Made by a program: the position numbers and the translations under genes | Shown: positions 9,911-24,824 of the stretch, one piece after another | Numbering within the stretch: the first letter of the stretch is position 1 | Layout: each line of letters begins with the position of its first letter | DNA from: a virus | Taxonomy: Duplodnaviria > Caudoviricetes | DNA length: 52,576 bases | Virus record (IMG/VR): IMGVR_UViG_3300047560_000375 | Span: 1 to 52,576 of that record | Reading direction: 5' to 3' (one strand) | The notes under the pieces: generated by a model | What the model was told of the DNA's origin: nothing | What the model saw: the letters and a program-made list of their open reading frames with translations, nothing else | Database searches by the model: none

Positions 9911-11392
9911 TTATTGCGCTACAGGAGCCTTAACTCTTGCAGGACGCTTGCTAGCTTTAGCAAGTTTAGCATCTATATTTGATGCTTGGTTAGGATTAGT
10001 AGGACTTGCTATATGCCTCATTCCTCGGCCTGTTGCAACTTGTGTGCCACCGGTGCTCGTCTGACCACGTGCTGATAATTGTCTTGCCATGTTAGCCATT
10101 GCGCTTGGTTCGCTAGCTGGTTCTGCCGCTGTAGCAGTCGGTAATTGTTTCTCTAATGCCGCAAGAATTCGTTGTTTACCCTTTTTATCTAGTTTACTTA
10201 GCAAGTCTTTCACTTGCATGTAAACTGATTTTTCTTTTTCCTTCGCTTGCGCCGGAGTTGTTACTGCTGATGGTGTTGTAGTTGGTGTTGTTGTTGCAGT
10301 ATCACTTGTAGGGGTAGTTGTATCAGTAGGTGTGTTTGTTAATCCAGCACCCTTTGCAAATGCACTCGCTAATCCACCCTGTGACTGTTGATGTGGTTCT
10401 GTTGTAGCATCTTGTTGACCAGCTGTATCAGAATAAGAAAGAGCATAACCTAGATTAGCTAATTTAGTGAATGCGGCTTTACCTTTATCTTGTTTGTATG
10501 TAGCTTGAACTGCGTCTGCTAATGACTTGATTTGTGCTTGAATGTCAGGTCTGTTGAGATTTACATTCTTCATGTATTTTTTAAAGAATGATTGAACGTA
10601 TGAACTGATGGAGGGCTTTGTAGGTGCTGTAGGTGCTGTAGCGTCTGCCTCATCTATTCTTAAGATAGATTCAAAAATAACGTTTAATTTAGAAAACGTA
10701 TTCTCTTTGAATACAGGTTTTGTTTGTGCTGGTGTATTTGGTTTTCTGTTATTCTTCCATACAGCAGGGGCAGTTGCAACTTTACTAAACGGTGCAGCCT
10801 GCTGATTTGCTGCCGCTGTAGCAGCCGCTTGCTTTTGTTGACGAATATTCTGTGCTTGTATAGCTGGCTGATTTGCAGGTAATTTACTGACGGGAGCCAT
10901 TTGTTGTTGTGCAGTTTGAGTAGCTGCCGCTTGCTTTTGCTGTCTAATTTGCGCCGGCGTTAATTGTGTAGGTTGTGTAGGGGCAACTTTATTAACAGGC
11001 TTCATTTGCGCTTGTGCATTTTTTGCGGCCAGTGCTTGCTTTTGTTGTCTGATTTGTGCAGGTGTTAGTTGACCTGATACGTTATTAGGCTCGCTCGGTG
11101 TTACAGTAGGTGCGGGTGACGGTGTCTGTTGCTGTTGAACAGGGGGTGTGGGCTGGGCATTACTTCCCATGTCAACTAGACCACTTTCAATTGCGCTTGC
11201 TAAATCGGTTGATGCTCTGCCTACGAAATCGCTGATATACGTATTCTTAGCCATTTTATCTTTGACTGATAACTGGCCCTCGCCTCTACCTAACAATCTA
11301 TTTCCGACTTGCTGTGTGCCAGCGGCTCCGAAGCTACCTATAACATGGCTTAAGTCTAGTTCTTGTAATTCTTTAAATTCATTCAGTTTCAC
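9911..11392 (-). CDS. Low-complexity Q/A/P/T-rich protein, probable head-internal protein
   Basis: Start MKLNEF; QLTPAQIRQQKQA repeats; PT-rich linkers. Confidence 0.55.
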   Translation of the reverse strand: MKLNEFKELQELDLSHVIGSFGAAGTQQVGNRLLGRGEGQLSVKDKMAKNTYISDFVGRASTDLASAIESGLVDMGSNAQPTPPVQQQQTPSPAPTVTPSEPNNVSGQLTPAQIRQQKQALAAKNAQAQMKPVNKVAPTQPTQLTPAQIRQQKQAAATQTAQQQMAPVSKLPANQPAIQAQNIRQQKQAAATAAANQQAAPFSKVATAPAVWKNNRKPNTPAQTKPVFKENTFSKLNVIFESILRIDEADATAPTAPTKPSISSYVQSFFKKYMKNVNLNRPDIQAQIKSLADAVQATYKQDKGKAAFTKLANLGYALSYSDTAGQQDATTEPHQQSQGGLASAFAKGAGLTNTPTDTTTPTSDTATTTPTTTPSAVTTPAQAKEKEKSVYMQVKDLLSKLDKKGKQRILAALEKQLPTATAAEPASEPSAMANMARQLSARGQTSTGGTQVATGRGMRHIASPTNPNQASNIDAKLAKASKRPARVKAPVAQ

Positions 11393-11627
11393 GATTTTTC
11401 CTTAAAGATTTTGCAAATCTTTGTTGGTCTCTGCTTTTAATGGCGCTTAAAAGTTTCTTTTCAAGAATTTGAGCTTTTTCGGCTGGATAATGACGATTAA
11501 TCATCTCCAATAGGTGTATTGCACTAGCAATGATATTGCTAGCCCTACTCTCAATAACATGTCCCGTATCACGGTTATTTCCGAGTGCTTCTAATTCCTG
11601 CAAAAGGGAGCGAGTTTGTTTTTGCAT
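11379..11627 (-). CDS. Hypothetical late protein
   Basis: 82 aa; AGGA RBS and CATAAATA upstream. Confidence 0.65.
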   Translation of the reverse strand: MQKQTRSLLQELEALGNNRDTGHVIESRASNIIASAIHLLEMINRHYPAEKAQILEKKLLSAIKSRDQQRFAKSLRKNRETE

Positions 11628-11670
11628 ATAATTATCCTACAAGTATTTATGCTATTTCCAGAATAATTAT
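11628..11670 (-). promoter_or_regulatory. Late promoter in the loop of an RBS-sequestering hairpin
   Basis: Minus strand ATAATTATTCT...AGGATAATTAT (11 bp, one G-U); CATAAATA at 11644-11651. Confidence 0.6.
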
Positions 11671-13106
11671 TTCTTTAAGGAATTCAATAGTGATTTGAGC
11701 TTAGTGCTCTGTACGTCAACTACGACATTTTTGCTCAATGGTTCCGGCATTATTTCTCCGGTAGATTCGTCTATAGTTGACTGGGGTTTAATTCTACTCA
11801 TAATGTCGTTAGGGCTTGGACTGGGTTTATATTTTGCTTGTTGTTCAGCATATCCGTCCGGATCGCTATCAGAAATTCGCATAGTTTCAATATCATAGTC
11901 CAAGTCAATCTTCATACCCACGCCCGTTGAACTACGTGATTTCATACATTGAATTTGATACTTACCCTTCTCCCGCATGTGACGGCTTGTAAAGATACCG
12001 AACACGTTATCTGCTGTGTTAATCTTACTAATACCACCAGCAATGTGACTGTGGTCGAATTCGATTTCATCGACGGCTGAACGATTTAACTGTGATGCAG
12101 TTACTAACAATATTCCTAGTTCTTTAGCTAAGTTACGCAATTCTTCTGCTACATACTTGTCTTTGATAAACTGGTCGTTAGGATTAACTTTCACAGAAAC
12201 TGGCATGACCAAGTCTAAGTAATCGACCATCACAAAGTCAACTTTGATACCTGTTTGAATCTGTACTTCTTTTAAGTAACTACGAATGTCATTGACGTTA
12301 CTCTGAGCAGGTAATGCTTTGACACGATATTTACCTGCATGTTTTGAAACCATCTTAACTTTCAAGTGTGTTGAATCAATGTCTTTGCGAATTGATTTAG
12401 TTCCTTGATTAGTCAACATAGCATCAGTACGCAAACTTGTTAGTTCTTCTGAAAGTTCTAGTGTGATGTAAACACCACTCATTCCAACTTGCAACCAATT
12501 CAATGCTAAGTTCATCATAACAAGTGACTTACCTGAACCTGAGCCACCTGCAAAGATGTTCAATTCACCACGGCTCATACCACCATAGAGAATCTTATCC
12601 ATTTGGGGCCAGCCAGTAGATACTTGTCCACCTGCATTAAAGTATTTGTTGATACGTGCCTTAGGATCAGCAAAGTAATCAGTACCCATGTCTTTCTGTA
12701 GACTAATCTGTACTGCGTCCTTGATTAGTTTTTCAACTGGTGCGAACTCACCCTTCTCAAGCATATCAGCGGCTTTAAGAATAGCACGTTCTAATTCTTG
12801 TCTTTTAGTGAATGCTTCAAACGCATCTAAGAACCACTCGTTGTGTCCTTCATTCAATTCAGGTATCGGTTCAATGTCAACACCTGTCATCGCTTGAATC
12901 TGAGTGCGATCAGGCAATACTTTGTATTTGTCTGTATGTTCTTTGTACATTTCAGCCACTGGTCTAAGTGACTTGTCAAAATTCTCACTGTTCATAATGT
13001 TCATAACCCGAGTATATAACTCAGCGTCAGACAACATCATTCTCAAAAATAATTTTTGTACGTCCGGTGTATATTCTATTTGTTTAGAATCCGTTTTGTT
13101 TACCAA
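11667..13106 (-). CDS. Replicative DNA helicase (DnaB/T4 gp41-like)
   Basis: Walker A GGSGSGKS, ITLEL, VDYLDL, TASQLNR, KSR. Confidence 0.92.
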   Translation of the reverse strand: MVNKTDSKQIEYTPDVQKLFLRMMLSDAELYTRVMNIMNSENFDKSLRPVAEMYKEHTDKYKVLPDRTQIQAMTGVDIEPIPELNEGHNEWFLDAFEAFTKRQELERAILKAADMLEKGEFAPVEKLIKDAVQISLQKDMGTDYFADPKARINKYFNAGGQVSTGWPQMDKILYGGMSRGELNIFAGGSGSGKSLVMMNLALNWLQVGMSGVYITLELSEELTSLRTDAMLTNQGTKSIRKDIDSTHLKVKMVSKHAGKYRVKALPAQSNVNDIRSYLKEVQIQTGIKVDFVMVDYLDLVMPVSVKVNPNDQFIKDKYVAEELRNLAKELGILLVTASQLNRSAVDEIEFDHSHIAGGISKINTADNVFGIFTSRHMREKGKYQIQCMKSRSSTGVGMKIDLDYDIETMRISDSDPDGYAEQQAKYKPSPSPNDIMSRIKPQSTIDESTGEIMPEPLSKNVVVDVQSTKLKSLLNSLKK

Positions 13107-14058
13107 TTTTCTTCCTCTGCATTTCTATCTTTATTTTACTATTAGTTGCATTCTGTATGATACTTAGTAGGGTAGGTAGTTTGCCATATTTAACTACCGC
13201 ATCGTTCACATCCTTCACATCATTATCCCAATTCGGCAAGCTAACTTGGTAGCCTAGTTCTAGTGCCCTATCACACATTTTCATTCCCGTAGCATCACGA
13301 TCGGGTACTACAATAATTTGTTTATTCAACGTTCCCAACAATAACGCTTGATCCGAGCTTATGTCATCGTGCATCACTGCTACGCCGTCAATACTCAATG
13401 CGTCAAATATACCTTCTGTTAAAATACAAAATTGCCATTCGGGTTTTTGAATATCGATATTGAATACATATCCCTGTTGTTGCTCATTAATGTATTTTGG
13501 AATTTTGTTGTCTAAGAATCTACTCGTATGTCCTACGATTTTATTCTTATATGTGTATGGTATAATGACACGGTTTGCCATTCTACCTTTTTCATGCGGT
13601 GTGATTAAGAAGGGATATTCACTAGTATCTATCTTGCGTTTGTGCAGATAGTCTACGTATACTTTGTGTTCTGTGTTGTTTTGGTCAACAAGTTCACCTT
13701 CAGGTAACTCGTGTTCGTCAAATTTTATTTTGATTTTCTTTTTAGGTTGAGTGAAGTCCAGTAAGTCTTTGTGTTGTAAACTTTCTAAACTCCATCTTTG
13801 TACTTGCTGTTCATCGATTCCGCACCACACTAATAAGTTGCGTGTTTTTGAATTGATACTACGACCTAGTGTGAAATTGCACTTGAAACCACAATTGAAA
13901 CAATGCATTGTCCAGTTGTGTCCATCAAATTTGATACCACCTCGCATACGCTTATCGGATCTATGCCCGAAGTGGTTGCAACAAACTGCGTTGAAACTTG
14001 TCCAACCACTTGACGTTTGTTTTTTCTTACCGGGTATTATAGATAGGATATCAAACAC
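13084..14058 (-). CDS. DNA primase (Zn finger plus TOPRIM; gp61-like)
   Basis: CC...HCFNC zinc site, TEGIFD, PDRD, KDVND; adjacent to the helicase. Confidence 0.88.
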   Translation of the reverse strand: MFDILSIIPGKKKQTSSGWTSFNAVCCNHFGHRSDKRMRGGIKFDGHNWTMHCFNCGFKCNFTLGRSINSKTRNLLVWCGIDEQQVQRWSLESLQHKDLLDFTQPKKKIKIKFDEHELPEGELVDQNNTEHKVYVDYLHKRKIDTSEYPFLITPHEKGRMANRVIIPYTYKNKIVGHTSRFLDNKIPKYINEQQQGYVFNIDIQKPEWQFCILTEGIFDALSIDGVAVMHDDISSDQALLLGTLNKQIIVVPDRDATGMKMCDRALELGYQVSLPNWDNDVKDVNDAVVKYGKLPTLLSIIQNATNSKIKIEMQRKKIGKQNGF

Positions 14059-14941: not shown

Positions 14942-14959
14942 TATTGACTTTTGAGTACA

Positions 14960-15340
14960 ATGATACAAAACGAATTTTTTAAGAAACTCAGCGAAAACCA
15001 CCCCTTCATCACAGTATGTTCATATGCCAACCAAGATTACGTTGGGATAGTTCAAAACCGTGATGACATGGTTACCACTATATATGATTATGGATCTATA
15101 ATTGATCCCTTGATAAAAGAAAAATTCCTAGAATTAGGTGATGTTTGGTGGTGGGAAAGTAATAGACTTATTCCTATTAACTTATTTCTAAAGGAAGAAT
15201 GGGCCCTGTTTAGGCCCTATCTAAGAACATTCAATAACAAAAGTTTAGTTATCGTACACGGACCTGTTTGTAGTATGGCTGAATTAAACAAACGCAGGTC
15301 TAAGCGCCGCTCTATCACATTAGTAAAAAGACTACCTTAA
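14960..15340 (+). CDS. Hypothetical protein with a basic C-terminus
   Basis: Lone plus-strand ORF filling the gap; WWWESNR motif; KRRSKRR tail. Confidence 0.7.
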   Translation: MIQNEFFKKLSENHPFITVCSYANQDYVGIVQNRDDMVTTIYDYGSIIDPLIKEKFLELGDVWWWESNRLIPINLFLKEEWALFRPYLRTFNNKSLVIVHGPVCSMAELNKRRSKRRSITLVKRLP

Positions 15341-15558
15341 AAATCTGTATTCTCTGACAGATATTTGTCAAATCTTTCAACGGCTTCGTTAAAGTCAATA
15401 GCCCAGACTTTTGCCTTCATAATACTTCCAACAATTTCCATATCAAACGGAATCGATCCGTTGAATCTGAAACTATCAGGGACTTCTACTTCTATGATAA
15501 ATTCCTGTAAATTTTTAGCTCTGAAAATTAAATTGGTTGCCATGTCTGCTGAATTCAT
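15337..15558 (-). CDS. Hypothetical protein
   Basis: 73 aa; ATGA overlap with the upstream gene and AGGAGA RBS. Confidence 0.6.
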   Translation of the reverse strand: MNSADMATNLIFRAKNLQEFIIEVEVPDSFRFNGSIPFDMEIVGSIMKAKVWAIDFNEAVERFDKYLSENTDF

Positions 15559-16127
15559 GTTGATTCTCCTAGTAAATTCATATGCACTACGACAAGATGT
15601 GCATAGGCAACTGCGTGACTACGTTTGAATGTGTAGCCGTCTGTGCCCTTATCCCATACTGTTTTAGAAATGTCAGACCATGATTGACCTATCAAATGCT
15701 TTTTACCTGGACGAATGATTGCTAAAAACATAGCTAGTCTGGGTATGCTATCGATTGGTTCGGGCATTTTTTCTAAGTTATAGTATTGATTATTTAAGTG
15801 AATTAGCTTCTCTACAAAATCTTTATCATTGAGTTTAGACCAATCTGGATCACGCATTAATGAATGTAAGTGTTGTTCATCTTTTACGTTTTCATAAACA
15901 TGAACATTCAGTAAGTCTAATTTGAAATAGCCACGCTTTTCTGCCTCAACATAATCGATACTAGCCATGTCAGTTGCAGGATCATATGGTACATCAGTAA
16001 TGTAAACACCCGTAGCATGATGACGAATAGGTTTAACATTACGCATTGCCGCACGTGTGTGTTGAATTAGTTTCAATAATTCATCACGATTGCCAAAGTC
16101 AATATCTACGTCTGAATCTATTCTCAT
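15555..16127 (-). CDS. Miniature DNA polymerase III alpha (DnaE, family C)-like protein
   Basis: DVDIDF, HATGV, GYFKLDLL, RPG and YTFKRSHAVAY match DnaE motifs in order within 190 aa. Confidence 0.8.
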   Translation of the reverse strand: MRIDSDVDIDFGNRDELLKLIQHTRAAMRNVKPIRHHATGVYITDVPYDPATDMASIDYVEAEKRGYFKLDLLNVHVYENVKDEQHLHSLMRDPDWSKLNDKDFVEKLIHLNNQYYNLEKMPEPIDSIPRLAMFLAIIRPGKKHLIGQSWSDISKTVWDKGTDGYTFKRSHAVAYAHLVVVHMNLLGEST

Positions 16128-16684
16128 CTTGGTGTTACCAATCCTGCTTTCATTAATTTCATATATCCCTGTTGTACAACAATCGCTTGTCGTTCAGCAT
16201 CTTCCACAGCTTTGTGACTAGTTGAATGACCACCGTCTTTTAAACTTACTTGAGTAACTTCGTACAATGTTCTTGTGTCTCGCATTGACCAGAAGGGCCA
16301 GGGGATAGGGTTGGGTTTATCACTAACCTGTCTCCAGGCATGCTCCATAACGATAAGGTCAAATGGAGCGCCATTAGACCAGACAGCACGGCGATTCCAA
16401 CAAAACTTATAAAGGGTCTCCATGCACTCTTTAAACGGGATTCTACCTTCTTCACTGAATGCTTCTTCGAGGGCAGCCGGGTTTTGTTCGCTCCACCACC
16501 GTAATGTATCTTCATTTATGCTCCTATTATATATCTCAGTTTGATCCTCTACTGTAGGTTTTAACTCAAGTCGTTCTACAACACCTGAACCTTTAGGATC
16601 AAATCTAACTGCACCAATAGAAAGAATAACACAATCAGGTGTTGTGTTCAAACTCTCAATGTCAATCATAATATCATTTGCCAT
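16124..16684 (-). CDS. DEDDh 3'-5' exonuclease
   Basis: IMIDIES, WSNGAPFD, RDTRT, HKAVEDA. Confidence 0.88.
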   Translation of the reverse strand: MANDIMIDIESLNTTPDCVILSIGAVRFDPKGSGVVERLELKPTVEDQTEIYNRSINEDTLRWWSEQNPAALEEAFSEEGRIPFKECMETLYKFCWNRRAVWSNGAPFDLIVMEHAWRQVSDKPNPIPWPFWSMRDTRTLYEVTQVSLKDGGHSTSHKAVEDAERQAIVVQQGYMKLMKAGLVTPR

Positions 16685-16685
16685 T

Positions 16686-16931
16686 TTATTCCCAGCGTAG
16701 TAAAAATAATGTTAAATCTGCATCGTTGCATAAGACAATCTCTCCCATTTCTGTATTGTCAATCCAACGATTGTCACCTGTTTCTTCTCTGTATCCGGAC
16801 TTACCAAATGTTTCAACACACCAGTTGTATATTTCAGATGCATCTACTTCTCCCTTACCTTTCCAAGAAATAGTATGGATGTTTTTTTTACTTCCATAAT
16901 AACGTTCTGTTTTGTGTGTGAAACTGCTCAT
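16686..16931 (-). CDS. Small FxLRW-family protein
   Basis: WCVETFG...LTLFLLRWE. Confidence 0.75.
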   Translation of the reverse strand: MSSFTHKTERYYGSKKNIHTISWKGKGEVDASEIYNWCVETFGKSGYREETGDNRWIDNTEMGEIVLCNDADLTLFLLRWE

Positions 16932-17296
16932 TGTTTTAATACGTGTACAATATACTTTTTCTCTAACCTATCGGTGAATGTTTCAACATCATCCATGTTG
17001 TCAAACACTGCACCTAAAACTTCTCTGGGATCTTTTATATCACCACTTCTACGAATGCATTCCATCAAATCTTGTGAAGTTGATGTTGCTAACAATGTAG
17101 AACTCAACCACAACACATAACCGTTTGTTAATACGATTCCTATTTCCCAACTCTTAGAATCGTTAGCAATCATTTCAACTAACACATACAACTTTTCAGA
17201 ATATACATCTAAGCCAGTGATGTGGTTGTTCCAAGTAACTTTGTACTTGCCTTTGATTATTTCTAATTCACAGAGGTCAGTTTTTCCACATTTCAT
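16928..17296 (-). CDS. Hypothetical protein (lacks the array motif)
   Basis: Fills the gap with an ATGA overlap; start uncertain. Confidence 0.55.
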   Translation of the reverse strand: MKCGKTDLCELEIIKGKYKVTWNNHITGLDVYSEKLYVLVEMIANDSKSWEIGIVLTNGYVLWLSSTLLATSTSQDLMECIRRSGDIKDPREVLGAVFDNMDDVETFTDRLEKKYIVHVLKQ

Positions 17297-17555
17297 AAGT
17301 AAACTTTGCTTTATCGCCCCAGACTTCAACGTACAATATACCGCCTGCTAACCAAAAATCCCATCCACTGTGTCGCTCACCTAAATTTCTGCGACACCAC
17401 TTGATATGTTCCATTTCATTAATTTTACGAAAGTTTAAATCAATTTTATATAACACGTGACCATTGCGTGTGTCCCGTTCTACACCGCTACGGTCTTCTT
17501 GTTGACCATATTGTTGTAACGGGGCGAATGTTCCTGTGCTTGTTCCTAATGCCAT
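17277..17555 (-). CDS. Small FxLRW-family-related protein
   Basis: KWCRRNLGERHSGWDF...FTYEMW. Confidence 0.6.
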   Translation of the reverse strand: MALGTSTGTFAPLQQYGQQEDRSGVERDTRNGHVLYKIDLNFRKINEMEHIKWCRRNLGERHSGWDFWLAGGILYVEVWGDKAKFTYEMWKN

Positions 17556-17773
17556 TATTGATACCTCAATGCGAACCATGTCGCCAATTCTTCTTTGTAA
17601 AACTTGAATATTGTATGTCGATTATACACTGCATCACCTGACCAGTCATCGTATTTGGGCTTGTGATATTCAAAGTCAAAGTCTATACCCTGAACATACC
17701 CTTGACTTCGTAGTTCTCTGACAATATCTAAGACTTCACTAGGAAGCCAATCTACTATTTTGACTTCTTTCAT
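17555..17773 (-). CDS. Small FxLRW-family protein
   Basis: FKFYKEELATWFALRY. Confidence 0.75.
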   Translation of the reverse strand: MKEVKIVDWLPSEVLDIVRELRSQGYVQGIDFDFEYHKPKYDDWSGDAVYNRHTIFKFYKEELATWFALRYQ

Positions 17774-18018
17774 TCTGGAAACATTATCCTAAACCAAGTA
17801 GCATACTTATCTTCTTGGAACGTAAGGTTCCAAACTGTCACGTGGCCCCTATAAGTCACGCCGTGCCCTTCCATTTCTACTTCTTCTGTGCCTTTCTTAG
17901 CAATCCAACCTTCTCCGCCGATTGAGTTGTGAAGGTAGTGAAGTCTCGGGCCTACATTCTTAGCAAGCCAGTTTTCGTGTTCACCGTATAGTTGTTTGAT
18001 TTTAATTGTGACCGCCAC
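17770..18018 (-). CDS. Small FxLRW-family protein
   Basis: WLAKNVG...LTFQEDKYATWFRIMF. Confidence 0.7.
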   Translation of the reverse strand: MAVTIKIKQLYGEHENWLAKNVGPRLHYLHNSIGGEGWIAKKGTEEVEMEGHGVTYRGHVTVWNLTFQEDKYATWFRIMFPE

Positions 18019-18264
18019 TTATCCTCCCCATCTTAGTGCGGCTAGTAAATAATCACGCTCGTGTCTAAATTTTGATTTAATCATGCCCTCTTCGATTTCC
18101 CATAGTGCATGACGTTCACAATTGTCAATCGCTTCATATAACCAAATAATAAATTCTGAACACACTTCATCTTCTTTTTCTATAGGAAAATGCACACGTA
18201 GTTCATACCAACCTGGCTTCATATCAACCCAATTTTTATTGTAGATTACGTTATGAATTCTCAT
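18019..18264 (-). CDS. Small FxLRW-family protein
   Basis: WLYEAI...FRHERDYLLAALRW. Confidence 0.75.
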   Translation of the reverse strand: MRIHNVIYNKNWVDMKPGWYELRVHFPIEKEDEVCSEFIIWLYEAIDNCERHALWEIEEGMIKSKFRHERDYLLAALRWGG

Positions 18265-18527
18265 GCCCATCGCAAAATAAACCATTCCATATCTTTTTGT
18301 TCACGAAACCAAAACCTAGAATTATTTATATACCATCGACCACCGGGAACAAACACACCGCCTTCAGGTCGGGGTCCATATGTTGTCTCACACCATTCTA
18401 CCATTTCATCCCATTCTGTTTTAAACCAAGTTGGAACATCTGCAACAAATTCAGGTTGCACAGTAAAATATCTTGCTCCGTAAACTCGCCCTTCATCAAT
18501 TAATAATGCTTTGTCAATTATCGTCAT
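18261..18527 (-). CDS. Small FxLRW-family protein
   Basis: WCETTYG...FWFREQKDMEWFILRW. Confidence 0.78.
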   Translation of the reverse strand: MTIIDKALLIDEGRVYGARYFTVQPEFVADVPTWFKTEWDEMVEWCETTYGPRPEGGVFVPGGRWYINNSRFWFREQKDMEWFILRWA

Positions 18528-18805
18528 GTGAATCTCAATAAAAAAATAATATATTTTTTCTCGTCCATAATTTTATATCCATCAGTTATATTGCCGTCTA
18601 CTATGTTCATCTTTATACCATAGTTTGCTTCAATGTAATCTTCAAACTCAAATGCATCAAATTGTCCAGCAAGGTCATTCAGTGATTCCATGTACTCTAT
18701 GCGAACTTTTTTTAATGCACTCCAGTAATCCCAGCGTTTCTTACGAAATTCCATTTCTGGGCCATCGTCATCATAATCTTGAAATGATTTAGGAATGTTA
18801 GTCAT
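18524..18805 (-). CDS. Small FxLRW-family protein, YG(I/V) subtype
   Basis: YGIKM...IMDEKKYIIFLLRF. Confidence 0.75.
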   Translation of the reverse strand: MTNIPKSFQDYDDDGPEMEFRKKRWDYWSALKKVRIEYMESLNDLAGQFDAFEFEDYIEANYGIKMNIVDGNITDGYKIMDEKKYIIFLLRFT

Positions 18806-18806
18806 A

Positions 18807-19067
18807 TCAAACCCATCGTAGAATAAACCACTCAGCGTCTTGTTTATTTTCAAACACATAGTCACTACCTAATCTACGATAGTCACCGGTACATGTCCCA
18901 GCTAACCAAATCTGTATATCAGTCGCTTGAGGACCATTCTTAAAATAAAATTTTACAGGTGTCCAACCGGTTTCAATTAACATAGTTGCTATGATTCCTT
19001 CATCAATTTCTTTGGCAATTTGTTTGCCAATCTCATCCATCATTTCTTCTTCTAGTGTTTTTCTCAT
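18807..19067 (-). CDS. Small FxLRW-family protein
   Basis: WLAGTC...FENKQDAEWFILRW. Confidence 0.78.
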   Translation of the reverse strand: MRKTLEEEMMDEIGKQIAKEIDEGIIATMLIETGWTPVKFYFKNGPQATDIQIWLAGTCTGDYRRLGSDYVFENKQDAEWFILRWV

Positions 19068-19408
19068 ACCCATCTTAATGTCATCCAGGTAAATAATTCT
19101 TCGTTTACTAAAAATCGTGTCATAGCAAAATGACAACCCTCTGTTTCTTCTGCATACTTCCACAAATGCGGTGGTTGTGTAAGTATCCACGATTCAACAC
19201 TTGGTCTAACATCAATTGCTATGCAGTTATGAGGGTATAACACAGTTTCGTTTTGATTCTCAACGATTAAGTAAGGCTTGAATGAAACTTGACCGTTTTC
19301 TACTTTAAAGGGGCTAGATGGGTCACCGGGCTTGGTAAATTTTTCAGTAACCTCTTTCTGAAGATTGCCACCCATCATCTTTAACACTCTGTTTATTGAT
19401 TCTAACAT
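19064..19408 (-). CDS. Small FxLRW-family protein
   Basis: VESWI...NEELFTWMTLRW. Confidence 0.7.
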   Translation of the reverse strand: MLESINRVLKMMGGNLQKEVTEKFTKPGDPSSPFKVENGQVSFKPYLIVENQNETVLYPHNCIAIDVRPSVESWILTQPPHLWKYAEETEGCHFAMTRFLVNEELFTWMTLRWV

Positions 19409-19851
19409 TAACTCCACCTCAACTTGAACATGATATAGTCTTGCTCATTCATAAAAGCAAAGTAAACAAAGTCACTACCACCAATATCATTGAACCACCA
19501 ATCTTCGTGGGTATCACCGTCTATGCCTATTCCAGTTTGACGATATACTCTATTAATATCCATGCGATACTTGAATCTACATTTAAGTTCACACCAATCT
19601 CGCATATCTTCGTAACCAAATCTAAGTCCGCCGGGTCCCCAATCAGCTATACATTGATAAGCATAATGTGTGGTATCACATCTAAACACATATTTGTACT
19701 TAGAATAGAAGTCACTTACCTTATCAGCATAGCGGACAACATCAGGATCACGATTGTGTCTATAGCTTCGCCATGTAAGGTAGCCACTCTTTGCTAACTT
19801 TCGGTGAGCAAGATATCGGCGCCAACGTGCTTTAAGTCTTAGTATTTTCAT
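19408..19851 (-). CDS. FxLRW-family protein with an N-terminal extension
   Basis: DWCELKC...FAFMNEQDYIMFKLRW. Confidence 0.75.
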   Translation of the reverse strand: MKILRLKARWRRYLAHRKLAKSGYLTWRSYRHNRDPDVVRYADKVSDFYSKYKYVFRCDTTHYAYQCIADWGPGGLRFGYEDMRDWCELKCRFKYRMDINRVYRQTGIGIDGDTHEDWWFNDIGGSDFVYFAFMNEQDYIMFKLRWS

Positions 19852-20134
19852 AAACTAATAAATCAAATGCTGTTGCATATTGTGTTTCAGGCTCCATATG
19901 AAAGCCTGTGCCCCACACTACCCATACTTTTCTTTTGTATGCTTTCTCCCAGAAGATGCGTTTACCCGTGACTGTCTTTCTAGGTAAAAAAGCAAAGTAC
20001 TCTGTCCAAGGATAGCAATCTGCGCCACCTTCTATAATTGTGTATTCCATAGGGTTAAATCCTGCAGGTATATGTCTTCCAATTCCATTAAAACTCATGT
20101 TGTCTCCGATGCTTCTGTTCCAAAGTATTTTCAT
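19832..20134 (-). CDS. Hypothetical protein (lacks the array motif)
   Basis: 100-aa ORF with coupled overlaps; WTEYFAFLPRKTVTGKRIFW. Confidence 0.65.
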   Translation of the reverse strand: MKILWNRSIGDNMSFNGIGRHIPAGFNPMEYTIIEGGADCYPWTEYFAFLPRKTVTGKRIFWEKAYKRKVWVVWGTGFHMEPETQYATAFDLLVYENTKT

Positions 20135-20361
20135 TTGTGTTTAAGTATGCACCACGTATACTTACCTTCGTCTAAAATTTCAAAAGTACCATCAATCTTA
20201 CCGTCATTATGAATCCACATTTTTATTCCATAATTGTTCTCAATGTACTTGTCAAAACTATCGCTGAACCCTGTGTATGACGGTTCATAGTAACCAGTAT
20301 ACTGCTTGTCGTATTCTGTTTTAAGAATTCTTAACAAGTGCCAGTAATCGTACTTGTTCAT
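20131..20361 (-). CDS. Small FxLRW-family protein, YG(I/V) subtype
   Basis: YGIKM...ILDEGKYTWCILKH. Confidence 0.72.
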   Translation of the reverse strand: MNKYDYWHLLRILKTEYDKQYTGYYEPSYTGFSDSFDKYIENNYGIKMWIHNDGKIDGTFEILDEGKYTWCILKHK

Positions 20362-20636
20362 CTATATTCTTTCATAGTGATTTCTTCATACTCACCTGCA
20401 AATGCTATTCTGAATACTTTAGCGGATTCACTGTGTTCAAACTGAACCACATCATAGTCTATTGGTCTATCCATTTTACTGTAAACACTTTGCCACTCAA
20501 CATGCCAACGACTGAATGGACCTTTCTCTGGATAGGCTTCTGCCCATTGGTACATCTCAGTGGTACACTTTTTTACTTTGAATCTGTATGTAAAAACTGG
20601 GCGATTGTTACCACCGCCACCGTAAAAATATTCCAT
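20358..20636 (-). CDS. Small FxLRW-family-related protein
   Basis: EMYQWA...VQFEHSESAKVFRIAF. Confidence 0.65.
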   Translation of the reverse strand: MEYFYGGGGNNRPVFTYRFKVKKCTTEMYQWAEAYPEKGPFSRWHVEWQSVYSKMDRPIDYDVVQFEHSESAKVFRIAFAGEYEEITMKEYR

Positions 20637-20888
20637 TTATTGCCACCTCAGCAAGAACATTACGAACTTTTGTTCATCAACTACACGATAATCTTTCATA
20701 TTGTAATCTTTGTCTAACTTTACTTCTACCCCGTATTCGACCAACACATGATGAAGTTGTGCATCATATACAGGATTGCCTGTGACTACTTTTGCTTCTG
20801 GGAGAACTGACCAATAATGATTAGGTGACGGTTGTCCTATACTTTCCACGGCTCGTGCCAATATTAGTTGTAAGTCACAAGATTTCAT
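20637..20888 (-). CDS. Small FxLRW-family protein, YG(I/V) subtype
   Basis: YGVEV...VVDEQKFVMFLLRW. Confidence 0.75.
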   Translation of the reverse strand: MKSCDLQLILARAVESIGQPSPNHYWSVLPEAKVVTGNPVYDAQLHHVLVEYGVEVKLDKDYNMKDYRVVDEQKFVMFLLRWQ

Positions 20889-21112
20889 GCCCACCTCAAC
20901 AAAAACCATTCATAATCTTGTTTGCGCTTAAAAGCAAAGTAACGAGTAACATTTCTCCAATTTTTACTTTTGAAGTTTGTGTAACAGAATCGCTCGGCGT
21001 TACCAATATCATACCAGGATTTGATTTCCATCTGATAGGGCCAGTAGGTATCATTTTGCCAATAACCGTCAAACGATCTCTCAATCAAATTTTTCACTGA
21101 TGTATTATCCAT
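20885..21112 (-). CDS. Small FxLRW-family protein
   Basis: FAFKRKQDYEWFLLRW. Confidence 0.75.
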   Translation of the reverse strand: MDNTSVKNLIERSFDGYWQNDTYWPYQMEIKSWYDIGNAERFCYTNFKSKNWRNVTRYFAFKRKQDYEWFLLRWA

Positions 21113-21372
21113 TATGACCACTTCAATACAAAAAATGTATGACTTTCTTCATTGTCCCACCGCAAGTACCAACCTTGTGTGCTAGTTTGAATCAGTTTAC
21201 CACCTAATGGTTTAAGTTCACGATTTGCAACAGTAATAGGCATCCAACCATTCAATCTAGCAGTAATAGAACAAGTGTTCCAGAAGTCATTAAAATACTT
21301 GGGCCAAGGATCATGCCATGGTCTGCCTACAGGAACGATAAATCTTTCTCTAACAAAATAAGGTTCTCTCAT
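21112..21372 (-). CDS. Small FxLRW-family protein
   Basis: WDNEESHTFFVLKW. Confidence 0.72.
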   Translation of the reverse strand: MREPYFVRERFIVPVGRPWHDPWPKYFNDFWNTCSITARLNGWMPITVANRELKPLGGKLIQTSTQGWYLRWDNEESHTFFVLKWS

Positions 21373-21605
21373 AGCCACCTCAAACTAAAACGAATTGCAT
21401 CTTCTTCTTTTAAGAAATAAAAGTCCATGTAATCTTCAGTTGGGTGTGTCGTATAATATGTACCAGGCACGCCGTAATGTTCCATTGCCCAAATGCAGGT
21501 TTCATCCCAATCACTAATAGTATCACCCTTCTTCCAGGGTATGCGTACTCTAGTACCCCGCCAGTTTGAGGGTTTCTCTGATTTGTTGTTTAAGGTTTGT
21601 GTCAC
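21369..21605 (-). CDS. Small FxLRW-family protein
   Basis: WAMEHYG...FYFLKEEDAIRFSLRW; start uncertain. Confidence 0.75.
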   Translation of the reverse strand: MTQTLNNKSEKPSNWRGTRVRIPWKKGDTISDWDETCIWAMEHYGVPGTYYTTHPTEDYMDFYFLKEEDAIRFSLRWL

Positions 21606-22254
21606 GGTGAAACTTCAATGCCCATTGTTCAGGATTTATATAATCAGATATCATTTTAACTTGGGGTTGATTTAATGTCTCTAAAAAACGGACACCGCTA
21701 TCACTACAATATAACATCCATGGGGATATTTTACCCGTTGTGATTGCATAACAAATCTTATTTGAGTTTCCATATCTCAAATAATCACATGTTTGGATAC
21801 CTTCTTCGGTTGATTTTTCGATGCATGTTTCTATACTTCGGGCAATAGCGTCAAACGCATCTTCAGTTCGCAGATATTCAATCAAGTACTTTGTGTAGAT
21901 ACTATCTTGACACCAGCTGTCAATTTTGATTTGATTCTTTAATAACCAATCAACGAATCTACTAACATTCAGTGCATTGACATTGACACAATAACTTCCA
22001 AATTTAACAAATGCAATGTAGTAGGCGCTTTTTATGAATTCTTCGTATGTCTTTTGTTTTTTGCTTGCTGAATTCTTTTTATAGAATTGCAACCATGATT
22101 GAAATCCCAATCGATTGCCTTGCTTGTCTCTTTCAATCCAACGATGTTTATATTCACATATGTGCTTTAAGACCGTGCTTTCACGTGCAAATTCACGTTT
22201 GCAAAATTCGCATCCATACTTCACTGGCTTATCAATTGCCGCGGTCTCTTTCAT
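21550..22254 (-). CDS. Hypothetical protein with an N-terminal C2H2/C2HC-like zinc finger
   Basis: YGCEFCKREFARESTVLKHIC. Confidence 0.65.
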   Translation of the reverse strand: MKETAAIDKPVKYGCEFCKREFARESTVLKHICEYKHRWIERDKQGNRLGFQSWLQFYKKNSASKKQKTYEEFIKSAYYIAFVKFGSYCVNVNALNVSRFVDWLLKNQIKIDSWCQDSIYTKYLIEYLRTEDAFDAIARSIETCIEKSTEEGIQTCDYLRYGNSNKICYAITTGKISPWMLYCSDSGVRFLETLNQPQVKMISDYINPEQWALKFHRDTNLKQQIRETLKLAGY

Positions 22255-22825
22255 ACTGTTCTATATCTTTGTCGGTTACTAAGTCACTTAATACATCAAT
22301 GTCCGCACGTTTCATTGTTGGGAAAATTTGTGCTAGATAATATTTCTTTTTATTTTCCTGAACGAATGCGTTAGCAACGTCATCAATGTCATTTGTATTT
22401 GCTTTGGGATAAATCTTTTTATAATACTCTTTGATATCTTTGATTTTTGCAGGCTCTTGTAGTTTAGAAACTTTTTCTTTGATTTGAGGGATCCATTGAT
22501 GAAACTGTTTTCCTAAACCCGGTGATGCCGCACACAACATCAGCCATTGTAATTTAGGATGATTCTGTACTTTCTCATTGAAAAAATGTTTGTTAGCATA
22601 TTCTGCTGTAGACATGATGTAATAACGTGACAATCCTTCACTACCCTTAATTGCGCTCATCCACAACAACATCATATACGGTACAAACTTCTTTTGTTGT
22701 TCGTCAGATAATTTATCATAGAACCCATAGTCTTTTTTATCTAGTGCGGCAAGTACTTCAAACAAGTCTAAGTCTTGCTTATCTAATTTTTCATCAGTGG
22801 GTGTTGCTGGTTTCTTTGTTGCCAT
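22232..22825 (-). CDS. Probable clamp-loader small subunit (T4 gp62-like)
   Basis: DLFEVL...FVPYMMLLWMS...HPKLQWLML...FHQWI pattern; replication-gene context. Confidence 0.55.
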   Translation of the reverse strand: MATKKPATPTDEKLDKQDLDLFEVLAALDKKDYGFYDKLSDEQQKKFVPYMMLLWMSAIKGSEGLSRYYIMSTAEYANKHFFNEKVQNHPKLQWLMLCAASPGLGKQFHQWIPQIKEKVSKLQEPAKIKDIKEYYKKIYPKANTNDIDDVANAFVQENKKKYYLAQIFPTMKRADIDVLSDLVTDKDIEQYERDRGN

Positions 22826-23336: not shown

Positions 23337-24824
23337 TCATTTATAGGTAAGTTTTTCCAAGTCAAATGGATAGTTAGCTTCTTTATAGAATGCTTTTCTT
23401 TGTGTTAGATGGCGTTTTGCAAACTTGCAGTTACTTGTAATGTCCCAAATCTGAACAAAGTCTTTGTCCTCTGCTTTACGAATGCCACGACCTATTGACT
23501 GAATAACTCTGACAAACGATTTGCCAGGCTCCAGCAGTACCAAATTAAAGATACGAGGAATATTAATTCCAACAGCGGCGACGCCGTAAGTCGCAATAAT
23601 AACTTTCTTATTGCTTGTGGCAACTTCATCATATTCTTCCTTACGTTCTGTTAATTTCATTTCACCCGAAACGAATGCAACATCAGGTGCATCTTTGAGT
23701 AAGCTGAATATGCTACTCAAACGTTTTTGTAGTTCTTTTCCTGCACCAATTCTATCTACAAGAATTAGCGTGTTTCCGCTTTCTGAGATTTTATTAACTA
23801 AGTCAGTGATGGTGTCTAATCGTTTACTATCCTCAGTTAGATATTTCAATTCACTTTGATAATTTGTAAACTCAACATCATCTTTTAGTTGAACGATGTT
23901 AACGTGACATTGTGCAAGTACACCTTTGTCTTGTAATTCTTTTGCTGATAATTTACCGATTACTTGTCCGATTGAAACATACAATGCTTGTGCTTCATAG
24001 ATTGCTTTAGGAATAGTTCCTGTCAATCCCCAGCGAATAGGTACATGAGAAAACGTACTAGTTAATAACGTTTTGATAACATCAGCTTTGGCCATGTGTA
24101 CTTCATCGACCATGACGCAAACAACATCTTCAATGAAGTCTTGTATAGTGAAGTCTGCTTCACCTGCTTGTGTATCTTTGAGTAAATTGTTTAGACTTTG
24201 CCATGTGCAGATTGTGTGTTTTTTGTTATAGTCTTTTCTATCACCAAAGTACACACCAACGTCTAATCCAACGTTCTTATAATCTTCTTCTGTCTGCACG
24301 ACTAGACTTTTGTTGGGTACAATTACAATACTGCGCCCATAGTCTTGTATTGAATAACTGAGTGCGGCTGTTGTAATTGTTTTACCTGCACCAGTAGCAA
24401 CTTCTTGAATTGATTGTGGGTTCGCTAAAAAGTTATTAATGACTTCAATCTGATAGTCACGTAACTTAATAGCTTCACCTTGTTTGGGGTGACCTTTCGG
24501 CCAGGTATATGCGGAAAAGGTGTCCTCTGTTACTGGTTTGAAATTGAATGTAGTCTGGTACTGACGACCATCTTCTAGTTCAATATCATACCCAGCTTGG
24601 TCTAGTAATGGAAGAATCTCGGGCAGTAGATTTACAAACGTACTACCACCGAGACTAAAGTAACTGACTTTGCCATTCCAACGACCTAATCGGACACTTG
24701 GTAAATATCTAGCACCGGGCTTCTCATACTCAAACATCTTCATCAATGCTTTTCTGTCGCCTAGTTCAAGTCCTTCTAGCTTTACATTGACTTCATCTTT
24801 AATTATTAGTTTACATTGTTTCAT
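23337..24824 (-). CDS. uvsW: SF2 DNA helicase, UvsW-like
   Basis: LRDYQ, ATGAGKT, DEVH, GLTGT, GINIP, QSIGRGIR. Confidence 0.88.
   Translation of the reverse strand: MKQCKLIIKDEVNVKLEGLELGDRKALMKMFEYEKPGARYLPSVRLGRWNGKVSYFSLGGSTFVNLLPEILPLLDQAGYDIELEDGRQYQTTFNFKPVTEDTFSAYTWPKGHPKQGEAIKLRDYQIEVINNFLANPQSIQEVATGAGKTITTAALSYSIQDYGRSIVIVPNKSLVVQTEEDYKNVGLDVGVYFGDRKDYNKKHTICTWQSLNNLLKDTQAGEADFTIQDFIEDVVCVMVDEVHMAKADVIKTLLTSTFSHVPIRWGLTGTIPKAIYEAQALYVSIGQVIGKLSAKELQDKGVLAQCHVNIVQLKDDVEFTNYQSELKYLTEDSKRLDTITDLVNKISESGNTLILVDRIGAGKELQKRLSSIFSLLKDAPDVAFVSGEMKLTERKEEYDEVATSNKKVIIATYGVAAVGINIPRIFNLVLLEPGKSFVRVIQSIGRGIRKAEDKDFVQIWDITSNCKFAKRHLTQRKAFYKEANYPFDLEKLTYK

Follow-up and report, generated by a model that had tools for sequence, protein, structure and literature searches.

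A hypervariable array of small cassette genes with a predicted dual-coding Leu-Arg-Trp tail in an uncultured jumbo phage

The analysis of a 52,576-nucleotide stretch of viral DNA (below, the window) revealed an array of 18 small genes, at least 14 of which appear from profile comparisons to form one small virus-only protein family. The genes behave as exchangeable cassettes. The Leu-Arg-Trp (LRW) tail of the family is, judging from models and codon usage, a part of the fold and also the predicted ribosome-binding site of the next gene. The region is best explained as a hypervariable locus of cassettes within the block of early/replication genes of an uncultured jumbo phage from freshwater, and its products would most likely be a repertoire of non-enzymatic binders, e.g. 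host-takeover, anti-defence or immunity-like proteins. For the explanation as a whole, combining the hypervariable locus, an undescribed mini-domain, dual coding and a binder repertoire, we put the chances at about even.

Layout of the locus

The initial annotation had reported 18 head-to-tail open reading frames of 72-147 aa with overlapping or abutting ends. This was borne out: all are co-directional and occupy positions 16686-21605 of the minus strand, which also carries both flanks. Junctions between the 18 genes are ATGA, TAATG or short overlaps. Start codons were set by the longest-ORF rule together with ATGA/TAATG logic, and the likely starts given below are predicted. The conserved upstream flank is a C2H2 zinc-finger gene (21550..22254; phrog_11058, PHROG E 1.1e-54) with relatives in 93 cultured jumbo-phage records. 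The conserved downstream flank (15555..16684) consists of a DnaQ-like exonuclease (16124-16684; phrog_255, E 3.2e-38) and a mini DnaE-like polymerase piece (15555-16127; phrog_11778, E 5.5e-57). The array had been placed between a clamp-loader-like gene and the exonuclease/mini-DnaE pair; the latter side of this placement holds, but the immediate upstream neighbour is the zinc-finger gene, and the clamp-loader-like ATPase (28449-29519) lies farther upstream. Promoter-like sites are not enriched in the array (39 found, 39.3 expected). A search for RNA data sets covering this part of the genome gave none. The source contig has an estimated completeness of 14%, and distant cultured kin of the source phage are the PA5oct, RaK2-like, SCTP-2 and Phosso phages.

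Members of the family

Of 447 ORFs in the window (stop to stop, 40 aa or longer), 11 match the strict tail [FWY].[LIM][RK][WFY].{0,2}$, ten of them inside the array; after residue shuffling (200 shuffles) the mean number of matches was 0.29 and the maximum 2. The common C-terminal F-x-L-R-W motif noticed initially is thus well founded. A leave-one-out HMM of the last 60 aa ranked 13 of the 18 genes ahead of all ORFs outside the array and all reversed decoys. In a non-circular search with an HMM built from 522 unique members, all outside the window, 14 of the 18 (m01, m03-m09, m11, m13 and m15-m18) outscored all 447 reversed decoys, the best of which had E 0.032, and none of the non-array ORFs of the window did so. 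The proposed second subtype (genes at 18524, 20131 and 20637) was confirmed; it is a homologue of the main type (hhalign 90.9%, E 1.1e-6, 47 columns to the C-terminus). Taken with the hhalign network and the common core of the models, these data argue for a single family. Its size had been put at about 16; one linked family stands, but the count is 14, perhaps 15, m10 being borderline and m02, m12 and m14 unlinked.

The first cassette after the zinc-finger gene, m18 (21369..21605; 78 aa; HMM E 2.5e-14), is a family member whose protein ends in RFSLRWL (gene 3′ end TTGAGGTGGCTATGA); its type (cluster 0) is present in 57 of 67 member-holding sources, and its dN/dS is 0.05-0.10. It forms an ATGA overlap with the weak member m17 (21112..21378; 88 aa by the longest-ORF rule, likely start ATG 21372; E 0.0033), which ends in FFVLKWS and has a dN/dS of 0.23-0.29. 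Family member m16 (20885..21121; 78 aa, likely start ATG 21112; E 5e-12) has a TAATG junction and hhalign values of 94-96% against m07, m09 and m11. The subtype 2 member m15 (20637..20909; 90 aa, likely start ATG 20888; E 2.3e-4; hhalign 94% against m08) is precisely absent from one metagenome contig (run X1), which joins 20636 to 20891. A real gene without sequence link to the family is m14 (20358..20636; 92 aa; E 0.36; hhalign at most 2%), with orthologs of 82-87% identity and dN/dS of 0.08-0.17. Subtype 2 is represented again by m13 (20131..20361; 76 aa; E 1e-5), which ends in WCILKHK, reaches 98% in hhalign against m08 and has a dN/dS of 0.16-0.23. Gene m12 (19832..20134; 100 aa) is real and a non-member by every test applied (hhalign at most 3%; not among the 30 HMM matches listed); it has orthologs in 12 loci and a dN/dS of 0.09-0.14, and its position in the array differs in locus L031.

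A long basic N-terminal extension distinguishes family member m11 (19408..19851; 147 aa; E 2.4e-10; pI 9.3; dN/dS 0.19). The borderline m10 (19064..19417; 117 aa, likely start ATG 19408; E 0.19) carries the motif TWMTLRWV despite its weak profile score; its best hhalign value is 25%, its orthologs are 75-79% identical and its dN/dS is 0.27-0.34. Family member m09, with an N-terminal helix (18807..19190; 127 aa by the longest-ORF rule; E 9.9e-13), is likely to be 86-88 aa long from ATG 19067 or 19073; its orthologs have 86-87 aa, its start overlaps the m10 stop as ATGA, and a Pfam Gp23 match is sub-threshold (E 0.14). The subtype 2 member m08 (18524..18865; 113 aa by the same rule; E 8.5e-11) is likely to have 93 aa from ATG 18805 and a dN/dS of 0.09; its type (cluster 1) occurs in 38 sources, mostly as the last or near-last cassette. 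The most typical member in the window is m07 (18261..18527; 88 aa; E 6.3e-21). Three further members follow: m06 (18019..18285; 88 aa, likely start ATG 18264; E 2.1e-7), ending in AALRWGG, with hhalign values of 89-91% against m11 and m18; m05 (17770..18018; 82 aa; E 4.5e-8), with a degenerate tail WFRIMFPE and a cluster found in 28 loci; and m04 (17555..17773; 72 aa; E 7.4e-9), ending in WFALRYQ, with a dN/dS of 0.13-0.14. The divergent m03 (17277..17579; 100 aa, likely start ATG 17555; E 0.0095) scores just above the first decoy; it has kept the W-helix and lost the tail motif, and hhalign gives 84% against m01. No family link was found for m02 (16928..17329; 133 aa, possible start ATG 17296; hhalign at most 14%; not among the 30 HMM matches listed), a real gene with an ortholog of 86% identity in L031 and a dN/dS of 0.13. 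The last cassette before the exonuclease, m01 (16686..16931; 81 aa; E 2.6e-16), is a family member with 95% in hhalign against m07.

Cassette exchange and selection

In 55 sources with both flanks, 2-16 members were found within 988-6277 bp. The HMM matches lie on the coding strand in 400 of 400 cases in the clade and in 346 of 346 cases in 56 other loci, and dN/dS of the array genes ranges from 0.05 to 0.34, the exonuclease having 0.12 and the zinc-finger gene 0.15. The array ORFs are therefore real genes, and each cassette type is under purifying selection. Only 26 of 400 clade members have a paralog in their own locus detectable by BLASTP, none above 40% identity, which fits the earlier remark that there is no obvious DNA identity. 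The members fall into 66 types at 50% identity, and within each genome every member is of a different type; the divergence of paralogs within loci and the clustering by type support the old expansion that had been suggested. Related phages differ by whole cassettes, which L031 has in a permuted order. BLASTN blocks have 112 unique ends inside the array; 51 of these are no more than 15 nt from a gene end, compared with 12.8 ± 3.4 for random placement, although such ends are partly expected where neighbours differ and are no proof of recombination at the junction sequence. It is the variable copy number, the lack of close duplicates, purifying selection and breaks at gene borders that lead us to regard the genes as exchangeable cassettes.

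The family extends to the cultured Sinorhizobium phage Phosso (20 matches) and to an uncultured-phage locus, L093, in which 7.7 kb contain at least 28 copies. Arrays in other phages adjoin various unrelated genes, for example tRNAs, a metallophosphoesterase and sugar enzymes, no neighbour gene is conserved across lineages, and no link of the array with replication genes is seen there. Within this clade the replication block always contains the locus, and a role tied to replication would be compatible with that as well.

Fold and novelty of the domain

The family domain is Trp-rich, has about 55 residues with an alpha-beta-beta-alpha core, and closes with F-x-L-[RK]-[WFY]-x-stop. Conserved positions are mainly aromatic or aliphatic, and no conserved catalytic-looking polar set is present in the domain. 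The N-termini, initially described as highly variable, do differ in length, as does one loop. AlphaFold models, one per subtype and both of medium confidence overall, have this core in common: the m07 model (mfd0597c4bf56) has a mean pLDDT of 74.8, with 80-94 per ten-residue block from residue 31, and the m08 model (m1c22c39373a2), without the N-terminal hairpin, a mean of 71.4. As profiles also link the subtypes, the suggested common small alpha/beta scaffold gains support. In both subtypes the tail motif lies in a modelled helix (pLDDT 88-89) and does not form a free tail. Members have pI values of 4.5-9.4 (median 5.6), basic ones being a minority.

Searches of Pfam, PHROGs and NCBIfam gave no match to the family at or above the curated cut-off, in agreement with the initial annotation, which had recognized no characterized family; solved structures gave no convincing match. 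Unnamed representatives number 341, and the nearest ESM Atlas clusters are viral, without a common Pfam family. Members of clusters go by 'hypothetical protein' or are left without a name. The mini-domain thus appears to be undescribed and virus-only.

Dual coding of the tail

In 77% of 535 unique members exactly one residue follows the tail aromatic, and the basic residue is retained in 88%. The Leu-Arg-Trp motif is preferentially written TTG AGG TGG, which places GAGG about 5 nt before the next ATG: the motif Arg codon is AGG in 65% (8% elsewhere in the same genes) and the Leu codon ends in G in 62% (against 31%). Each cassette's 3′ end is therefore predicted to carry the Shine-Dalgarno (SD) sequence of the next gene, and TTGAGGTGGnnATGA, resulting from the AGG-biased motif, would combine this sequence with the start codon of the next cassette. 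The TTGAGGTGG form was found in 116 and ATGA in 188 of 349 junctions. An SD-like 4-mer is present in 180 of 360 gene tails, compared with 174 of 1644 background windows; among 37 larger genes of the window, 12 have such a 4-mer in front of them, the background being 10.5%. The codons forming the SD and start of the next gene also explain why the motif stands exactly one residue before the stop. The tail is a protein feature too, since 309 members without an SD-like tail keep F in 92%, L in 91% and K/R in 81%.

In translationally coupled operons, stops and starts overlap as ATGA or TAATG, with the SD sequence inside the upstream coding sequence. The same holds for the LRW genes, except that their SD comes from a protein motif (TTG AGG TGG) recurring in hundreds of paralogs. 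With the SD written in a conserved motif, the coupling signal would travel with each cassette. Dual coding may thus let cassettes be gained, lost or reordered with translation preserved, and the short conserved junction may double as a crossover site.

Possible functions and related systems

The aromatic and aliphatic conserved positions, the wide pI range, the variable N-termini and loops and the non-redundant repertoires all point indirectly to binders. Such modules would have different specificities, would be made along with the replication genes and would most likely act on different proteins of the host, or of competing elements, by neutralizing or redirecting them. No similarity of the family to known anti-defence, immunity or takeover proteins was found. 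The proteins could instead be interchangeable adaptors that all dock on one phage or host hub (e.g. a replisome part or the sliding clamp) via the C-terminal F-x-L-R-W, with variable parts bringing different cargo or regulation. The fixed distance of the ending from the C-terminus, its retained basic residue and the constant place of the array among replication genes in this clade would suit this, and so would a likeness to the clamp clients of T4-type phages, which use C-terminal hydrophobic tails. Docking is nevertheless unlikely, because the motif lies in a confidently modelled helix and its position has an explanation at the RNA level; the unrelated surroundings of arrays elsewhere, with no neighbour conserved across lineages, also speak against it. 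A replication-block location would likewise suit regulators that bind nucleic acids, or accessory factors of replication, with a beta-beta-alpha-beta-beta-alpha sandwich like that of DCoH. The top entry in the structural comparison of the m07 model is DCoH (1uso_B; Z 4.7, rmsd 3.2 Å, 64 residues aligned), whose elements come in the same order. However, this Z is below the stated noise level of the comparison tool, subtype 2 lacks the N-terminal hairpin, and the median pI is acidic with basic members in the minority, so that we consider such a role highly improbable.

A poly-immunity set, i.e. inhibitors of polymorphic toxins or nucleases from hosts, prophages or competing phages, would be a special case of the binder repertoire without a separate mechanism, and seems quite unlikely as an explanation of its own. 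The model for it is the tandem SUKH immunity arrays of bacteria, which are read, in the available text of Zhang, Iyer and Aravind (2011, PMC3113570), as alternative specificities under diversity selection: these too are tandem distant paralogs of one small alpha+beta domain, varying in number and type between strains. The non-redundant repertoires and the small, mostly acidic proteins without a catalytic motif agree with this model. The LRW family, however, matches neither SUKH nor Pfam immunity families, no linked toxin gene was noticed on an unsystematic inspection of the window and the inspected loci, and its arrays, carried by phages, are packed far more densely (L093 has at least 28 copies in 7.7 kb).

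That the cassettes are largely selfish, persisting because the junction eases their copying from one phage to another while the phage itself gains little, is very unlikely. Presence varies among close relatives, blocks break at cassette borders and the junction is conserved; an analogy is offered by the mini-circles of promoter-early stem-loop (PeSL) cassettes in T4-type phages (Arbiol et al. 2010, PMC2839356). But purifying selection on each type matches in strength that on the replication genes at the flanks, no genome has two copies of one type, and some types, such as those of m18 and m08, are nearly fixed. As far as the accessible part of that paper goes, PeSL regions are hyperplastic series of small genes that are non-essential and of unknown function, in which a short conserved regulatory motif at the borders accompanies insertion, deletion and replacement of whole genes among close relatives, as in the LRW array. 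The PeSL is an intergenic sigma-70-type promoter with a terminator hairpin, whereas the LRW genes overlap without intergenic space and their repeated signal is a predicted ribosome-binding site inside coding sequence; the genes flanked by PeSLs are ORFans with no relationship to one another, but most LRW cassettes belong to one protein family.

A tiny domain, also of unknown function, has undergone a very large expansion in another jumbo phage, Bacillus phage G, as a lineage-specific set of about 35 zinc-ribbon proteins (Iyer et al. 2021, PMC7824862); the LRW-tail family is not mentioned in the available text of that paper. The LRW domain is distinct from the zinc ribbons as described there, having no metal ligands, and the family spans several phage lineages as exchangeable cassettes.

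Genomic context and membership of the array

The window is a 52.6-kb fragment from an IMG/VR virus record, with an estimated completeness of 14%. No tRNA genes were found in it, and the minus strand carries almost all of its long ORFs. PHROG matches assigned a DnaB-like helicase, a primase, a mini DnaE-like polymerase piece (15555-16127), a DnaQ-like exonuclease (16124-16684), a UvsW-like helicase (23337-24824), a clamp-loader-like ATPase (28449-29519), rIIA, rIIB and a large terminase. Immediately upstream of the array is a gene for a zinc-finger protein (21550-22254); proteins related to it at 28-37% identity occur in 93 records of cultured jumbo phages, among them PA5oct, RaK2/121Q-like coliphages, SCTP-2 and Sinorhizobium phage Phosso. 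Megablast with positions 16000-22500 detected no near-identical DNA in the phage collection.

The array itself (16686-21605) consists of 18 minus-strand ORFs of 72-147 aa, designated m18 (first cassette) to m01 (last), which overlap or abut. Members of this unnamed family of LRW-tail mini-proteins end in F-x-L-[RK]-[WFY] followed by 0-2 residues. A strict C-terminal pattern for this tail was found in 11 of the 447 ORFs of the window, 10 of them within the array, and a looser form of the tail in 12 array ORFs. When residues were shuffled (200 trials) the strict pattern appeared 0.29 times on average and never more than twice. Leave-one-out profiles of the last 60 residues placed 13 of the 18 ORFs above all other ORFs and reversed decoys. 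An HMM check, proposed in the initial annotation, linked the members above decoys: with a profile of 522 unique members built without any window sequence, 14 of the 18 scored above the best of 447 decoys, and no ORF of the window outside the array did so. ORF m10 carries the motif and is borderline, with a profile E-value of only 0.19. These data confirm a tandem array of paralogs with a shared C-terminal motif; the array as first described thus stands, while the count of about 16 members is reduced to 14-15 by profile scores.

Profile-profile comparison of ortholog groups revealed a connected core of m01, m04, m06, m07, m09, m11, m16 and m18 at 85-96% probability, to which m03 is linked via m01 (84%). 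The three ORFs of the second subtype (m08, m13 and m15) are joined to one another at 78-98%. That this subtype belongs with the main type, as had been supposed, was upheld with larger alignments, which matched the two at 90.9% probability (E 1.1e-6) over 47 columns reaching the C-terminus. For m02, m12 and m14 neither the ortholog-group comparison nor the 522-member profile gave a family link, though the genes are conserved. These three (16928-17329, 19832-20134 and 20358-20636) are under purifying selection and sit within the array, with which they move. They may be passengers of other origin or family members that have diverged extremely far.

Conserved core of the family

The consensus of 50 sequences was G..Y..V.P...W..M..WC...FGP......RWY.N...FWF..E.D...F.LRWS, and the core elements of the profile are a W-helix, an FG turn, an RW strand, an F-x-F strand and a C-terminal helix. 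One representative of each subtype was modelled. The AlphaFold model of m07 (mean pLDDT 74.8; 80-94 per ten-residue block from residue 31) has strands at 7-11 and 14-19, a helix at 33-50, strands at 65-67 and 72-74 and a helix at 77-87. The model of m08 (93 aa from the ATG at 18805; mean pLDDT 71.4) has helices at 18-43 and 51-62, strands at 64-69 and 72-79 and a helix at 82-92. The two models thus have an alpha-beta-beta-alpha core in common, with differing N-terminal additions, and the shared small alpha/beta scaffold postulated earlier is supported at the level of prediction. In both models the tail motif lies within a helix (pLDDT 88-89).

Among 535 unique members the tail residues are conserved at 91% (F), 93% (L), 88% (R/K) and 92% (W/F/Y), with exactly one residue following the tail aromatic in 77%. 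The strand F is kept in 78%, and one G, one W, one E and one D in 57-63% each. On reading the conservation table we saw no polar set that would look catalytic. Tryptophan makes up 5.2% of the members compared with 1.6% of larger genes, and their pI has a median of 5.6 with a 5-95% range of 4.5-9.4.

Comparison with described families and structures

The curated cut-offs of Pfam, PHROGs and NCBIfam were not reached by any match, whether from the ORFs of the window, from 16 metagenomic representatives or from 12 members from other phages, Phosso proteins included. With Pfam at E ≤ 0.1, none of these 18, 16 and 12 sequences brought a family to its cut-off, SUKH and other immunity families included. 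The sub-threshold matches were DUF3201 for m10 (E 0.003; 17.5 bits against a cut-off of 25), hGDE_N for representative P0015 (E 0.0022) and four PHROGs at E of about 1e-3 for residues 8-36 of representative P0009.

Foldseek found nothing in the PDB at E ≤ 0.001 (best E 1.4). With VIA-align, run on 48,161 chains, each model reached a best Z of 4.7, rated by the tool as background; the best row for the m07 model, 1uso_B, aligned 64 residues with an rmsd of 3.2 Å at this Z, and a Z below 8 may reflect a mere common arrangement. We take 1uso_B to represent the DCoH/pterin-4a-carbinolamine dehydratase fold. A sequence search of the PDB with the family profile returned a single row, 9sfa_A, at E 0.4. 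In BFVD there were one row for the m07 model and two for the m08 model at E ≤ 0.001; these, and all rows at a probability of 0.99-1.00, are uncharacterised proteins of uncultured Caudovirales. The earlier statement that no characterised family could be recognised is thus borne out, both by the curated cut-offs of the three libraries and by Foldseek against the PDB.

A profile search of 1.84 billion representatives yielded 341 proteins at E ≤ 0.001. Among the 150 matches listed the length was 61-155 aa, and in those of the 150 that were inspected the match reached or adjoined the C-terminus. Source names of family proteins were "hypothetical protein" or blank, and the nearest ESM Atlas clusters were viral and had no common Pfam family. 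Nothing was found at E ≤ 0.01 by tblastn of m07 and two family proteins from outside the window (P0007, P0035) in 50,697 phage records; searches with two others, P0076 in viral contigs and P0088 in metagenome contigs, gave no match. None of 7,997 candidates of 259-2000 aa was a longer fused form, which is weak evidence. A description of the family was not found by keyword in open-access papers, which does not prove its absence from the literature; nor was the family mentioned in the available part of a jumbo-phage review (PMC7824862).

Turnover of cassettes among close relatives

IMG/VR contained 389 relatives of the flanking exonuclease, and 80 of these loci, at 82-89% identity, were fetched. 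The family profile matched 400 of 5,224 ORFs in 66 fetched loci and the window, all on the coding strand. In 55 sources with both flanks, the space between them ranged from 988 to 6,277 bp and held 2-16 members (median 5); by the same count the window has 13 members in 4,866 bp. The clade has a single complete genome (352 kb), in which the 13 matches are all confined to one 5.3-kb stretch.

At 50% identity the 400 members form 66 types, and no type recurs within a genome: there are 13 types for 13 members in the window, 14 for 14 in locus L031 and 16 for 16 in each of loci L023 and L056. A detectable paralog in the same locus was found for only 26 of the 400, and none exceeded 40% identity. 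The arrays are therefore not recent amplifications, in agreement with the old expansion suggested initially. The dN/dS values of window genes against their orthologs, scored without pairs with saturated dS, were 0.05-0.34, comparable with those of the exonuclease (0.12) and the zinc-finger gene (0.15).

Similarity of the DNA to 82 related loci breaks at cassette borders: 51 of the 112 unique block ends inside the array were within 15 nt of a gene end, against 12.8 ± 3.4 (maximum 24) for random placement in 2,000 trials. In L031 the shared cassettes m09, m10 and m12 occur in a different order. Metagenome contigs of 85% likeness showed a joint from 20636 to 20891 that deletes exactly m15, the replacement of 19054-20122 by 436 other letters and loose ends at several cassette borders. 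These joints are used as support only, because the populations are mixed and joints below 95% likeness often come from other organisms.

Tail codons at the gene junctions

Overlaps of the longest ORFs in 230 adjacent member pairs were mostly 10 nt (101 pairs) or 25 nt (60), followed by 4 nt (20) and 13 nt (9). In the 10-nt class the final base of the motif Arg codon and the TG of the Trp codon make up an (A/G)TG; often, two codons further on, an ATG overlaps the stop as ATGA. As both are available, the true start is uncertain but the coupling is certain. Codon choice in the motif is biased: the Arg codon is AGG in 65% of 267 cases versus 8% of the 1,532 Arg codons in the rest of these genes, and the Leu codon ends in G in 62% versus 31% elsewhere. 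A Shine-Dalgarno (SD)-like 4-mer was present within the final 15 nt in 180 of 360 genes, compared with 174 of 1,644 background windows. Among the larger genes of the window, 12 of 37 are preceded by such 4-mers, as are 10.5% of random windows.

At the junctions the consensus reads TTT nnn TTG AGG TGG nnA TGA, with GAGG 5 nt ahead of the ATG, and the codons of the tail thereby provide the following gene with its SD sequence and start; TTGAGGTGG was found at 116 and ATGA at 188 of 349 junctions. In the window ATGA occurs at nine junctions, five of them behind a tail-motif cassette, and TAATG at three. In 309 members whose tail is not SD-like, the F is kept in 92%, the L in 91% and the K/R in 81%, so the tail is also a feature of the protein.

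Promoter-like sites were not enriched (39 found, 39.3 expected), and no G+C-rich terminator lies between the cassettes of the array. The clearest terminator is upstream at 25898-25883, a hairpin rich in G+C (GGGGACTTCGGTCCCC) with a run of T after it. We therefore infer that the array and the replication genes are transcribed together. The hairpin lies directly upstream of a promoter-like site (25866-25838), and it likely bounds the transcription unit holding the array. Of the mechanistic points, the dual use of tail codons and cassette-wise exchange are the best supported.

Arrays outside the clade

Two viral contigs of 102 and 114 kb had 10 and 5 matches, respectively, and a scan of metagenomes found 54 further loci; together these loci account for 346 members out of 2,077 ORFs, all on one strand. 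The densest arrays contain at least 28 members in 7.7 kb (loci L093 and L094, of which L093 reaches the end of the fetched DNA) and at least 26 in 7.9 kb (L126, also reaching the end); L125 has 19 and L097 has 15. In the cultured Sinorhizobium phage Phosso (469 kb) the profile gave 20 matches, spread over several clusters, with a tail resembling DAMLFKL[RT]W, and the genes inspected were all annotated "hypothetical protein". PA5oct gave one weak match; Escherichia phage A4 and SCTP-2 gave none with the profile. Neighbours of the arrays vary by phage and include tRNAs, a metallophosphoesterase and sugar epimerases; among the neighbours in other phages no conserved partner gene emerged.

In Phosso (PV764938.1) tRNA genes are interspersed among the clusters at about 2,900-14,000 and 113,000-118,000, and the former region also includes a partial gene for histidyl-tRNA synthetase.

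Extensions at the N-terminus

Thirteen members, one cassette per array, have a P-loop-like N-terminal extension, ..L.PYQ..L....G.MT.....GRQTGKS (L092:4998-5411, L091:2299-2703, L093:4983-5423, L126:4989-5426, L097:4983-5387 and others), which resembles the beginning of large terminases. When its profile was run against the PDB, P-loop noise alone was returned, and the proteins lack the remainder of an ATPase. In L091 and L092 the gene is an ordinary array cassette and not an interrupted terminase gene, and the terminase reading is rejected for now.

ORF m09 (18807-19073) and its orthologs, such as L091:3402-3710, begin with a helix, ..AKEIDE.I... In two of nine proteins it matched positions 169-199 of Pfam Gp23, the major capsid protein, below threshold (E 0.14 and 0.077). 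Gp23 is carried by 13% of the members of one neighbouring ESM Atlas cluster.

Possible function of the array

The most likely reading, which we hold with about even confidence, is that the array may encode a repertoire of binding modules with different targets. Such a repertoire fits conserved positions that are mostly aromatic or aliphatic on a compact scaffold, together with variable N-termini and loops and charges that range widely. The presence of each type once per genome, the purifying selection that acts on every type, the turnover of whole genes among close relatives and restriction to viruses in the sources searched fit it as well. Immunity and counter-defence gene sets show such a pattern, according to PMC3113570. 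No toxin gene was noticed among the annotated neighbours of the array.

The initial annotation had also considered adaptors docking on one shared hub through the C-terminal motif, which is possible but weakened. The clamp-binding tails of T4 gp43, gp33 and gp55 are flexible C-terminal peptides outside the fold that bind the sliding clamp; the LRW motif is modelled within a confidently predicted helix, and a clamp gene was not identified in the window. The T4 internal proteins, encoded at the polymorphic IP locus, have a conserved N-terminal capsid-targeting sequence that is cut by the prohead protease, whereas in the LRW family the conserved part is C-terminal and the N-termini are the most variable. 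The nearest published parallel is the T4-type system of promoter-early stem-loop (PeSL) cassettes (PMC2839356). The intergenic sigma-70-like promoter and stem-loop terminator that define PeSL there are, however, absent from the LRW array, the genes of which abut or overlap.

The repertoire of binding modules could be extended to a more speculative proposal, which we regard as unlikely in its entirety. The arrays would form an integrase-free cassette library at the level of the population, with TTGAGGTGGnnATGA serving as ribosome-binding site, start codon and homologous crossover point. Phages of the clade would therefore gain, drop and reorder ready-to-express binder genes against differing host-defence or rival-phage proteins. 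Some N-termini may mimic terminase or the major capsid protein and could jam the assembly of rivals.

If the reading as a repertoire of binding modules is right, the arrays would rank with the largest known expansions of paralogs in tailed phages (28 or more copies within less than 8 kb in some uncultured phages, and 20 matches in a cultured one), in a family absent from the descriptions in Pfam, PHROGs and NCBIfam. The arrays illustrate that a conserved protein motif can double as the translation signal of the next gene, giving plug-in cassettes. The family would be a large natural source of small, stable, diversified binding domains, the targets of which may expose defence or takeover pathways of freshwater and soil bacteria. 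Phosso provides a cultured and harmless laboratory system, which opens the question to experiment.

Other features of the window

An ORF at 50949-51245, which ends in YYKLKYE, was considered as a further member and ruled out (E 1.6 with the outside-window profile). A 129-aa ORF at 14951-15340 is on the plus strand, unlike almost every other gene of the window; its match is phrog_11637, of unknown function (E 6e-31), and the ORF is conserved at this position in L091 and L092. Two adjacent minus-strand ORFs, 46456-47712 and 47723-48979, are exactly equal in length at 418 aa each and are possibly a paralog pair of structural genes.
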